NCBI RefSeq assembly: GCF_003334335.1
Contig: NZ_QOWQ01000166.1
Strand: one strand, 5' to 3'
Length of the DNA: 632 nt
Origin: Escherichia coli
GTDB lineage: Bacteria; Pseudomonadota; Gammaproteobacteria; Enterobacterales; Enterobacteriaceae
Below the pieces are notes generated by a model that saw only the letters and a program-made list of their open reading frames with translations, was not told where the DNA came from and did not search any database. Positions 1-632 of the stretch are shown in pieces. The stretch's first letter is position 1; the number at the start of each line of letters is the position of its first letter. The translations under genes and the position numbers were made by a program.

Positions 1-62
1 CCGCAGGCGCTTACGACCAGCGGCAACGTCAGCGCGCAGAGTTTCATTTTCAGCTCTCGCAT
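1..62 (-). CDS. Rz1: o-spanin outer-membrane lipoprotein, lambda Rz1-like, embedded in the +1 frame of Rz (partial)
   Basis: Minus-strand ATG at 62..60, with a second in-frame ATG at 47..45, in the +1 frame relative to Rz. Translation to the window edge: [20 protein letters not shown]. This is a lipoprotein-type signal peptide with a lipobox-like VVSAC, the Cys codon at 5..3. It closely parallels the lambda Rz1 N-terminus as I recall it (MLKLKMMLCVMMLPLVVVGC). An embedded out-of-frame o-spanin inside the i-spanin gene is the established lambda arrangement. Confidence 0.8.
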
Positions 63-282
63 CGGCTAATTCCCTCGAGTATCTGGCATCAAGTGCAGCA
101 ACATCACGCTGGCGCTGCTGCATATCAGTAATGGTTGCATTTGCCTGCTCCAGCTCACTGACTTTTTTATCGCGCTGCTCTTTGTAGGTTATGGCGTTAT
201 CACGGTAATGATTCAGCCCCAGACTAAGCACACCACAGGCTACCAGCATGACAATAATCACCACACACAGAACACGGTTCAT
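1..282 (-). CDS. Rz: i-spanin, lambda Rz-like (N-terminal 94 codons; 3' end lies beyond the window start)
   Basis: Minus-strand ORF with ATG at 282..280 (complement), open to position 1. Hand translation: [94 protein letters not shown]. It has a short N-terminus, one hydrophobic signal-anchor helix, then a charged, Ala/Arg/Glu/Gln-rich segment typical of the periplasmic coiled-coil of i-spanins. Several blocks match lambda Rz as I recall it ([37 protein letters not shown]). Not in the ORF track, presumably because it is truncated by the window edge. Confidence 0.9.
71..76 (-). promoter_or_regulatory. Shine-Dalgarno-like element (GAGGGA) upstream of the Rz1 start
   Basis: On the minus strand GAGGGA lies 8 nt upstream of the Rz1 ATG at 62..60. 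It sits inside the Rz reading frame, as expected for an embedded gene. Assigned on sequence complementarity and spacing only. Confidence 0.35.
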
Positions 283-283
283 A

Positions 284-370
284 TCACCACCAACGAATTG
301 CCCAGACCAGAACAGCAATGGCCACAATACGAATGGCAAATGCCATTGCCCGAATAAGTTCAGCACTCAT
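284..370 (-). CDS. small single-helix hydrophobic peptide, 28 aa, function unknown (paralog C of a tandem triplet)
   Basis: Minus-strand ATG at 370..368, TGA at 286..284. Translation: [28 protein letters not shown]. Short polar N-terminus, then a hydrophobic helix with an Arg/Trp C-terminal end. It aligns without gaps to the neighbouring ORF at 382..498 (RAMAFAI versus RALAFAI). The stop is 1 nt from the Rz ATG. Below the ORF-track length cutoff. The upstream SD is weak (AAAAAG), so expression may depend on coupling. Confidence 0.5.
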
Positions 371-381
371 CTTTTTAAAGT

Positions 382-498
382 TCACGATTTCAGCGCAATG
401 ACCAGTTTTGCCAGCCCATACAGCATCGGAGACACAGCAATACCAACAGCCACCCACTTAATAGCAAAAGCCAGCGCTCTGCTGATGTCATCAGTCAC
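382..498 (-). CDS. small single-helix hydrophobic peptide, about 38 aa, function unknown (paralog B of a tandem triplet)
   Basis: Same frame as the ORF-track entry 382..597, but I place the start at GTG 498..496; an alternative GTG at 504..502 overlaps the upstream stop as GTGA. Stop TGA at 384..382. Translation from GTG498: (M)TDDISRALAFAIKWVAVGIAVSPMLYGLAKLVIALKS. The portion of the track ORF upstream of 504 (CDCRYFIFTNAGCSFSVPRLGDVVF...) is not helix-like and is antisense-frame overlap with the better-supported ORF at 501..632. The N-terminus MTDDIS and core RALAFAIKWVAV match paralog C, and VGIAVSPML matches paralog A. Confidence 0.5.
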   Translation of the reverse strand: MTDDISRALAFAIKWVAVGIAVSPMLYGLAKLVIALKS

Positions 499-500
499 TG

Positions 501-632
501 TCACCCCAGCAGCCCCGACGAAGACAACATCACCCAGGCGAGGGACAGAAAAAGAGCAACCAGCATTAGTGAAAATGAAATACCGACAATCACACACAGG
601 ACCTTTGCCGGCGTTATGAGTTTGTCTGACAT
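501..632 (-). CDS. small single-helix hydrophobic peptide, 43 aa if the ATG at the window edge is the true start, function unknown (paralog A of a tandem triplet)
   Basis: Minus-strand ATG at 632..630, exactly at the window edge, so upstream extension cannot be excluded. Stop TGA at 503..501. Translation: MSDKLITPAKVLCVIVGISFSLMLVALFLSLAWVMLSSSGLLG. Polar N-terminus with two Lys, then a hydrophobic stretch of about 26 residues. The N-terminus MSDKLI parallels MTDDIS and MSAELI in the next two ORFs, which supports this ATG as a genuine start. Core VGISFSLML matches VGIAVSPML in paralog B. Not in the ORF track. Confidence 0.45.
   Translation of the reverse strand: MSDKLITPAKVLCVIVGISFSLMLVALFLSLAWVMLSSSGLLG

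Follow-up and report, generated by a model that had tools for sequence, protein, structure and literature searches.

Does a pair of spanin genes that is preceded by small hydrophobic reading frames, and by no endolysin gene, belong to a lysis cassette that has lost or exchanged its endolysin? This question is raised by a 632-nucleotide (nt) stretch of Escherichia coli DNA (assembly GCF_003334335.1, contig NZ_QOWQ01000166.1), referred to in its entirety as the window, in which all coherent genes lie on the minus strand and are read from position 632 to 1. The 350 nt located 5' of the start of the i-spanin gene Rz (positions 283–632) contain only three tightly packed hydrophobic open reading frames (ORFs), which we call mini1, mini2 and mini3, and a survey of both strands found no ORF of endolysin size or character in this interval, just as the initial annotation had described. 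Three alternatives had been put forward on this basis, namely that holin and endolysin genes lie beyond position 632, that the endolysin gene R has been deleted or replaced, or that the peptides take part in an unconventional lysis strategy, and only the first of these stands. The window is almost certainly the distal part of a lambdoid late lysis operon of the phage-21/933W type, whose cassette is complete, ordinary and of an already known architecture. Taken as a whole, the locus is best explained, at a probability of roughly 60%, as a 933W-type operon end combined with dispensable late membrane peptides that would tune lysis.

The lysis operon around the window

Escherichia phage PhiR5_1 (complete genome; recorded host E. 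coli C) and several chromosomes of E. coli contain the window at 100% identity, and matches to it occur in 2,180 of 5,426 complete E. coli genomes, with at least 80% of its length covered in 615. Its context is described here for E. coli 2018-166, whose locus (L002; loci are numbered with an L throughout) contains the window as positions 6001–6632 (Table 1). In both 100%-identity records a distance of 1,063 nt separates the end of R from window position 632, R lying upstream in the orientation of the window genes and with the holin gene S directly before it (some 1.6 kb upstream of position 632 in L002); because S and R lie there, the endolysin is present and the cassette complete. R aligns to solved lysozymes from residue 12 onwards, so that the alignment covers its hydrophobic N-terminal segment YGLSAAVLALIAAGASA. 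Two of these structures, PDB entries 3hde and 3hdf (deposited as 'Lysozyme'), we take to be R21, the signal-anchor-release (SAR) endolysin of phage 21, and by homology to R21 and RrrD a SAR behaviour would be expected of R as well. Rz (PF03245 at 6.3e-50 and phrog_13 at 1.7e-77 for the full protein of 164 amino acids (aa) from L002) carries the o-spanin gene Rz1 embedded in it (phrog_3198 at 1.6e-30 for the full 61-aa ORF in L002). The full element runs from a P21-type (pinholin-family) S through an R21-like R, a KilAC antirepressor gene and four mini-ORFs, of which mini0 lies beyond position 632, to Rz with Rz1 and the terminase genes.

Further upstream there are a Q-family antiterminator gene, three tRNA genes (tRNA-Ile/Arg/Arg) and a SASA esterase gene, and downstream of the Q-family gene and the tRNA cluster all annotated genes as far as Rz share the strand of the window genes. 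A holin, an endolysin and a Q-like region, which had been named as what to look for upstream, were all recovered, as a PF04971 holin, an R21-like lysozyme and the Q-family gene. The region is the usual late region of a Shiga toxin (Stx)-type phage, here without stx (no stx gene was found between the tRNA genes and the esterase gene of the host prophage). A consensus scan predicted no sigma-70-like promoter on the coding strand from S to Rz (L002 4100–7300), and the mini-ORFs most probably lie on the Q-antiterminated late transcript. Some details of the neighbourhood are recorded for completeness: the host prophage has one short Q-family gene (107 aa), with two reverse-strand genes behind it; Rz of L002 is about 10 residues longer than most of its relatives; and a 74-aa ORF just past window position 1, which overlaps Rz at its 3' end and covers just the middle of the 291-residue phrog_2571 profile (function unknown), is probably a gene fragment.

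The features that place the cassette in the phage-21/933W type are a P21-family holin, an endolysin that is of SAR type by homology, and an Rz with embedded Rz1. With 933W and the Stx-phage cassette it shares the order S–R–ant–Rz/Rz1, the P21-type holin, the R21-like endolysin and the position of an antirepressor gene (ant) between R and Rz; it differs in that the phage of the window carries a KilAC-type antirepressor instead of that of 933W and four mini-ORFs instead of one, that the 933W reference annotation contains no mini-ORF, and that the host prophage lacks stx. The functional parts are also those of the phage 21, DLP12, Qin and lambda cassettes, and S, R and Rz are homologous to the proteins of phage 21 and DLP12. 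In lambda, phage 21 and DLP12, R abuts or overlaps Rz. It does so in Qin too, whereas the window type has 1.4 kb of accessory genes intercalated; the R stop and the Rz ATG are 1,413 nt apart in L002, a gap that holds the KilAC antirepressor gene and the four mini-ORFs. To call the cassette non-canonical, as had been done at first, is therefore apt only in so far as R does not abut Rz as in lambda, the order being otherwise that of 933W. The absence of an abutting R from L002, and from the 83 related loci considered below, is not disqualifying, because this feature defines the lambda layout and not the 933W-type cassette. Conservation of a holin–endolysin–spanin cassette next to stx has been described for Stx phages, with ant in 126 of the 279 genomes studied (Pinto et al., 2021; PMC8136144); that survey makes no mention of the mini-ORFs.

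That R was deleted or replaced, the peptides serving an unconventional lysis strategy, is an idea that the 632-nt window taken alone would favour, as no endolysin is visible inside it. Its probability is brought close to nil by the intact S and R21-like R that lie 1.06–1.8 kb upstream in the exact-match records, by the retention of R in all 83 loci that hold both R and Rz, and by the isolated phage (recorded host E. coli C) that carries the identical sequence; S, R and Rz/Rz1 are all present in one same-strand operon. With a holin–endolysin pair upstream, which the initial annotation itself had named as a refutation, the peptides are accessory genes and not replacements. A cassette without endolysin would have been remarkable; its appearance here is an effect of the window boundary.

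Small-gene mosaicism at the R–Rz junction

The region between R and Rz was compared in 80 viral contigs with close relatives of Rz, five annotated phage regions and one E. coli chromosomal region, among which 83 loci hold both genes. R abuts Rz in 0 of the 83. A hydrophobic mini-ORF ends 1–7 nt before the Rz ATG in 78, and the five exceptions comprise four frameshifted copies of mini1 and one locus with a 255-aa ORF before Rz; in 71 the spacing is the same 1 nt that separates the mini3 stop from the Rz ATG in the window. At least nine architectures occur. The order mini0–mini1–mini2–mini3 without ant is found in 29 loci and the same order behind ant, which is the window type, in three, so that the mini arrangement of the window is abundant (32/83). 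A single 32-aa ORF (MAEKLSTWKFILIWLVFVIMASGYFIGQIRWW), a hybrid of mini0 and mini3, takes its place in 21 loci, a 50-aa long form of mini3 in 18, and a 60-aa long form of mini2 followed by mini1 in eight. The remainder include ant–mini1 as in 933W (two loci), ant–mini0–mini1 (one locus) and ant–mini1–mini3 followed by the 255-aa ORF (one locus, L037). By inspection, this last ORF, between mini3 and Rz, resembles an N6-adenine DNA methyltransferase (DPPY motif), and its insertion indicates that the junction accepts larger cargo too.

A second, independent retrieval by family profile yielded 80 more loci, all of them with the 60-aa gene. In every locus of this set with enough flanking sequence the gene sits between R and Rz, followed by mini1, by mini3, or by mini1 and then mini3; in L172 the full-length gene is followed by the exact window block of mini1, truncated mini2 and mini3. 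The R–Rz junction is a recombination hot spot: three small-gene families are combined there differently from one relative to the next, and an antirepressor gene may or may not accompany them. Our literature search on small genes between endolysin and spanin genes, or on small phage RNAs at this place, returned nothing specific, and we found no paper that describes the junction as a combinatorial hot spot for small membrane-peptide genes. No paper was found on phage PhiR5_1 either, and the main text of a paper on Hfq and small RNAs in enterohaemorrhagic E. coli does not mention the lysis region.

Table 1. Positions of the features discussed (GRAVY, grand average of hydropathy; SD, Shine–Dalgarno; orientation 'as window' denotes that of the window genes).
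Feature	Locus	Positions	Strand or orientation	Details
mini1	window	501..632	-	43 aa, single-pass hydrophobic, GRAVY 1.64, MSDKLITPAKVLCVIVGISFSLMLVALFLSLAWVMLSSSGLLG
mini2	window	382..504 or 382..498	-	GTG start, 40 or 38 aa, GRAVY 1.14, ends ...TVTDDISRALAFAIKWVAVGIAVSPMLYGLAKLVIALKS
mini2 as in RefSeq/PGAP	window; L002	382-537; 6096-6251	-	51 aa, CTG start, 37-nt overlap with mini1
mini3	window	284..370	-	28 aa, hydrophobic, GRAVY 1.48
SD-like site for Rz, GGTGGTGA	window	284..291	-	within final mini3 codons (RWW-stop); duplex -6.2 kcal/mol
Rz i-spanin gene, first 94 codons	window	1..282	-	N-terminal transmembrane segment and coiled coil; runs past position 1
Rz1 o-spanin gene, first 20 codons	window	1..62	-	+1 frame inside Rz; signal peptide with lipobox VSAC
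123-aa ORF (rejected)	window	248..619	+	antisense to mini-ORFs
Q-family gene, tRNA genes, SASA esterase gene	L002; L103	240-1479; 6806-11117
Class II holin gene S	L002	4184-4399	as window	PF04971 'Bacteriophage P21 holin S' at 1e-32
Lysozyme gene R	L002	4404-4937	as window	matches to PDB 3hde, 3hdf and 4zpu (RrrD)
KilAC antirepressor gene	L002	5211-5906	as window
mini0	L002	5903-5998	as window	31 aa, MKMIKMDWKFLLVWLIPFLWVVAQLITAIKG; ATG overlaps ant stop as ATGA; beyond window position 632
mini1-mini2-mini3	L002	6001-6349	as window
Rz/Rz1	L002	6351-6845	as window	terminase genes further downstream
74-aa ORF	L002	6842-7066
255-aa ORF	L037	2716-3483
ant-Rz gap of 933W	L003 (NC_000924)	2495-2647		153 nt; mini1 homolog
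Hairpin upstream of long-form gene	L004	2369-2401
Hairpin upstream of long-form gene	L093	3417-3451
Hairpin upstream of long-form gene	L098	2432-2462
Hairpin upstream of long-form gene	L087	~3400-3432
Hairpin, further loci	L048, L050, L088, L091, L094, L097, L100, L101, L102, L008, L021
Antisense promoter-like site	L004	2442-2471	minus
Antisense promoter-like site, same offset	L093, L087, L088, L094, L095, L048, L050, L102
Upstream ORF of 8 codons	L093	~3480-3512		also in L094, L095, L088, L050
STnc100 copies	L093	240-436, 545-745, 1477-1701

Coding evidence for the mini-ORFs and their long-form relatives

Are the mini-ORFs genes at all? It is very probable that they are real accessory genes for small membrane proteins, or fragments of such genes. 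The 350 nt are covered in full (100%) by hydrophobic same-strand ORFs as against a shuffle mean of 30%, and since none of 2000 dinucleotide shuffles reached the observed coverage, the packing is beyond chance. A single hydrophobic stretch long enough to span a membrane is encoded by each mini-ORF (best 19-residue hydropathy 1.9–2.9), and the annotated frames of the mini-ORFs and their long forms are those with the lowest ratio of non-synonymous to synonymous polymorphism (pN/pS) among the six. A bias in the codon positions at which substitutions fall favours these frames as well. The successive joints are an ATGA overlap (ant/mini0), a 2-nt gap, a GTGA overlap, an 11-nt gap and a distance of 1 nt before Rz, and the energies of the duplexes with the anti-SD sequence are -7.7 kcal/mol for mini1, -6.4 for mini0, -5 to -6 for the GTG starts of mini2, +0.3 for mini3 and -6.2 for Rz, whose SD-like site GGTGGTGA stands 2 nt from its ATG. 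Through these overlaps and short gaps the mini-ORFs are most probably translated by coupling, as the GTGA overlap with the mini1 stop suggests for mini2, and the last of them also supplies the ribosome-binding site of Rz.

Several other ORFs and starts were considered and rejected. The 123-aa plus-strand ORF antisense to the mini-ORFs is hydrophilic and unannotated, its pN/pS is not the lowest, and we regard it as a by-product of hydrophobic coding on the opposite strand; a 71-aa ORF overlapping mini1 and a 33-aa ORF overlapping mini2 were set aside on account of substitutions at second codon positions or a higher pN/pS. For mini2, the CTG start at position 537 that RefSeq/PGAP uses is without SD support, and the GTG codons at 504 and 498 are more plausible.

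Of the three, mini1 matches phrog_4906 at 4.5e-21, is preceded by a strong SD sequence (AAGGGG) just outside the window, and has a pN/pS of 0.53 in frame as compared with 0.62–1.19 in the other five frames. Its relatives form about 60 clusters, all from E. coli, in which the length is kept at 43–44 aa. For mini0 the pN/pS is 0.29, the lowest of the six frames. In 933W, the gap between ant and Rz is unannotated in the reference, yet encodes a homolog of mini1 (44–49 aa) that begins in an overlap with the ant stop and is about 65% identical in aa sequence to mini1 of the window. This 933W-type sequence (MMGWLMISDKLITLVK...) corresponds to XECs191, a translated novel gene of E. coli O157:H7 Sakai, for which a transcriptome value of 30.0 and a translatome value of 12.6 reads per kilobase per million mapped reads, a ribosome coverage value (RCV) of 0.43 and a coverage of 0.55 were reported in LB, and which is predicted to be an inner-membrane protein with one transmembrane helix, no function being assigned (Hücker et al., 2017; PMC5597208). 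XECs191 is thus a direct homolog of mini1, at the stated distance of about 65% identity and with a low signal. An origin of mini1 by duplication of the transmembrane segment of Rz was also considered and rejected: the shared 'VLCV...MLVA' peptide reaches a z score of 3.3, but the DNA only 1.6 (-0.4 for 933W).

Paralogy between mini2 and mini3 is significant (z 5.1–6.4), and both belong to a family of longer proteins. Apart from one conservative change, mini2 equals residues 22–60 of a 60-aa protein (MEKYKRILLRLTMKNGLELKAPVTDDISRAL...), and mini3 aligns with the C-terminal portion of the 50-aa form, which about 18 loci carry; mini2 matches phrog_1115, phrog_3246 and phrog_4493, and mini3 phrog_4493. 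The long forms measure 50–66 aa, share the consensus M.KYKRILLRLTMKNGLE..AP.T.EIS.A.AFAI[KR].VA..., end in RWW or LKS, and occur in Salmonella and Klebsiella as well as in E. coli and E. marmotae; their N-terminal segment is basic and presumably cytoplasmic, and one transmembrane helix follows it. Four sequences of the 60-aa type gave a pN/pS of 0.26 in frame as against 0.93 and 3.0 elsewhere, with synonymous sites about half saturated, and a Klebsiella/metagenome pair gave 0.11, other frames in the family tests lying at 0.8–3.0. Judging by these ratios, the long-form family is a real protein family under purifying selection. A profile search of 1.84 billion representative proteins returned 32 relatives only, all but two of them small, and none of the 32 provided a link to a named family.

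For the shortened copies in the window the alternative of recombination debris has to be weighed, according to which mini2 and mini3, perhaps together with mini1, would be what is left of longer genes, no longer translated, their frames staying open since hydrophobic codons rarely give rise to stops and the 3' end must retain the ribosome-binding site of Rz. The two peptides align only to the C-terminal 38 and 28 residues of the 60- and 50-aa relatives, mini3 has no SD match, which makes its translation doubtful, the start of mini2 is ambiguous, and the mini1/mini2 joint resembles a scar of illegitimate recombination, the same block standing behind a full-length copy in L172; moreover, the window-type block is nearly invariant, so that selection within it is not measurable. 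Against inert remnants speak the substitutions between mini2 of the window and its relatives, none of which (0/23) falls on codon position 2 and most of which are at position 3, the recurrence of a short mini3 with its own ATG in at least three architectures, the strong SD sequence, conserved length and pN/pS of mini1, and the abundance of the window type, both among the 83 loci (32) and in the 615 E. coli genomes that match at least 80% of the window. For the set as a whole we therefore judge debris to be distinctly unlikely; for mini2 and mini3 taken by themselves its likelihood is higher.

Candidate roles of the small membrane proteins

Searches by family assigned no function to the peptides. 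Pfam returned no hit for mini1 or the 60-aa form even at E<=10; Rfam models matched neither the stretch from S to Rz in L002 nor the leaders of the relatives; and by exact-sequence look-ups the peptides are widespread, named only 'hypothetical' or 'membrane protein'. Their size, hydrophobicity and location are compatible with small membrane proteins of lysis cassettes, and no membership in a described holin or antiholin family was found in Pfam, NCBIfam or PHROG. A relationship of mini2 to the second transmembrane domain (TMD2) of the pinholin or to the SAR segment of R was rejected, the short matches (z 3.6–4.0 among 45 comparisons; z 4.0 over 16 residues for S21 TMD2) being too weak, and a pinholin-TMD2 origin is unlikely also because the family occurs together with class I holins. 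Disruptin-type substitutes for spanins, cationic amphipathic peptides such as phiKT gp28, were likewise rejected, given that Rz and Rz1 are both present and that the mini-ORFs are hydrophobic (GRAVY 1.1–1.6) with few charged residues. In Salmonella and metagenome contigs the long-form family stands between endolysin and i-spanin genes in cassettes of varied type, which differ in holin (PF04971/PF16080 or PF05106), endolysin (PF00959, GH19 or phrog_873) and i-spanin (phrog_13 or phrog_214).

The reading that we favour is that the products of the mini-ORFs would be single-pass accessory peptides of the inner membrane, dispensable and expressed late, which may modulate the steps of lysis that take place there, i.e. 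holin triggering, release of the SAR endolysin or spanin activity. Such a modulator role we put forward tentatively, and regard it as somewhat doubtful when taken on its own. The closest positional analogue for a role in timing is LysA of P2, a membrane protein whose gene lies between the endolysin gene K and the spanin genes lysB/lysC and which reportedly affects lysis timing. LysA is likewise a non-essential membrane protein encoded between endolysin and i-spanin genes, but is larger and multi-spanning, and as no sequence relationship to the mini-ORFs was detected the likeness is positional only.

A number of observations weigh against this interpretation. The copy number and content of mini-ORFs differ among otherwise near-identical cassettes, the Qin cassette of K-12 has none, and those of lambda, phage 21 and P22 are not known to carry any; because of this variation and these absences, the peptides are not needed for lysis. 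Copies of mini1 are frameshifted in viral contigs L041–L044 and L064, some 130 nt before Rz, and are decayed versions in some elements. The ribosome-profiling signal of XECs191 is weak and comes from uninduced cultures. The conserved N-terminal segment of the family is missing from mini2 and mini3 (mini1, by comparison, appears to be of full length), and this truncation, together with the lack of an SD match for mini3 (+0.3 kcal/mol), means that both may be inert. NCBIfam and PADLOC gave no match for the mini-ORFs, so that no specific role is supported, and the PHROG matches were confined to families of function unknown, with no hit in the lysis category. Finally, remote members of the family are found ahead of baseplate gene W, behind tail fibre genes, behind the tape measure gene and beside defence-like genes, beside a P22-type antirepressor gene, and between a capsid gene and a Mu gp36-like gene; as these occupy other junctions of late operons, they argue against a function specific to spanins or to lysis.

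It is this last observation that lends weight to a rival explanation, namely that the small genes are moron-type cargo: mobile genes for small inner-membrane proteins, serving for example in superinfection exclusion, that have no lysis role and reside at a tolerated insertion site. Members at several unrelated late-operon junctions, close to accessory, defence-like and antirepressor genes, would be expected of such cargo, as would modules that vary in presence and are shuffled combinatorially, and long-form genes that each bring their own upstream terminator-like hairpin and structured leader; the weak translation signal in uninduced lysogen cultures points the same way. A precedent is offered by the gp15-type morons of HK97, small membrane proteins in late operons that reportedly give superinfection exclusion (gp15 itself being a tail-cluster moron that excludes superinfecting phage), with which the mini-ORFs share a place between late genes, polymorphism among relatives and several types of junction; indeed, the presence/absence polymorphism and varied junctions typical of morons were both seen for the mini-ORF families. 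Classical morons have a promoter of their own and a downstream terminator, whereas no coding-strand promoter is predicted for the mini-ORFs in the genome of the window and in the relatives the hairpin precedes the gene. The tight coupling of translation to ant and Rz, the location at the endolysin/i-spanin junction in every E. coli locus with enough flank and in most Salmonella loci, the lack of PADLOC hits and the near absence of any periplasmic domain with which to contact an incoming phage also count against cargo, which we consider unlikely.

The leaders of the long-form relatives deserve separate consideration. In 13 of 13 long-form loci inspected, the small gene is preceded at 40–110 nt by a strong hairpin (-14 to -22 kcal/mol) with an A-run on one side and a T-run on the other; this hairpin resembles a bidirectional terminator, keeps its pairing while the sequence of the inner stem varies, and is found whatever the genomic context. 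The same upstream hairpin is shared by L008 and L021, which carry an unrelated mini0-type gene, and in E. coli cassettes without ant it is placed about 80 nt past the R stop, inside the late lysis operon. A second, small leader hairpin overlaps the SD sequence and ribosome-binding site of the long-form genes, and in most of these loci a sigma-70-like site on the minus strand (TAGTCA, 18 nt, TATACT or TATAAT) stands at a fixed offset within the first codons (KYK...LTM). Together, the hairpin and the antisense promoter-like site would define an antisense RNA of about 70–130 nt over the ribosome-binding site. The full-length relatives appear to be self-contained travelling modules of hairpin, structured leader and small ORF, and by analogy with type I toxins and with ant/sar of P22 they may be under cis-antisense RNA control. 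Two further features of such leaders may be mentioned. Those of the Salmonella-type and 50-aa-type genes contain an 8-codon upstream ORF (MCREVCSL in Salmonella) with a strong SD sequence; the TGA of this ORF shares bases with the GTG that starts the main gene, and a second SD-like sequence, GGGAGG, is covered by a small hairpin (GGGA...TCCC). The Salmonella prophage L093, which has a long-form small gene, carries three copies of STnc100 (Rfam; 70–86 bits at a gathering score of 47) upstream of its holin gene.

From the leaders, one might propose that the long forms are small toxic membrane proteins held in check by a cis-antisense small RNA, as in type I toxin systems, and that the copies in the window are deregulated or decayed. 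The upstream hairpin in all 13 loci, the promoter-like site at the same offset in most of them, the leader hairpin over the SD sequence, the hydrophobic nature and small size (<=66 aa) of the proteins, and a geometry like that of P22 sar RNA, which is antisense to the start of ant, are all consistent with it. The proposal depends on consensus matches, though, and in two members the promoter-like site agrees with the consensus at just 8 of 12 positions; conservation of the -10 element could stem from constraint on the protein, since it overlies the conserved Lys-Tyr-Lys codons. Rfam yields no match, the genes are co-oriented and coupled with essential late genes, and none of the leader elements occurs in the window or in its genome, in which R is followed by a weaker hairpin of another kind. 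We consider control of this kind very unlikely as an account of the locus, and return to accessory peptides of a 933W-type operon as the preferred one.

Were the mini-ORFs to act in lysis, they would belong to small inner-membrane protein families not recognised so far and would represent a new class of accessory factor in prophages of E. coli and Salmonella, Stx phages included, a prospect that we hold to be improbable rather than remote. They are common and to all appearances real, and constitute a modest, testable lead for experiment and not a discovery. For at least one of the small-gene families purifying selection is evident, and this family shows a positional link to the spanin genes across cassette types. 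Given that lysis of Stx phages controls the release of toxin, any modulator of lysis timing at this junction would bear on pathogenesis.

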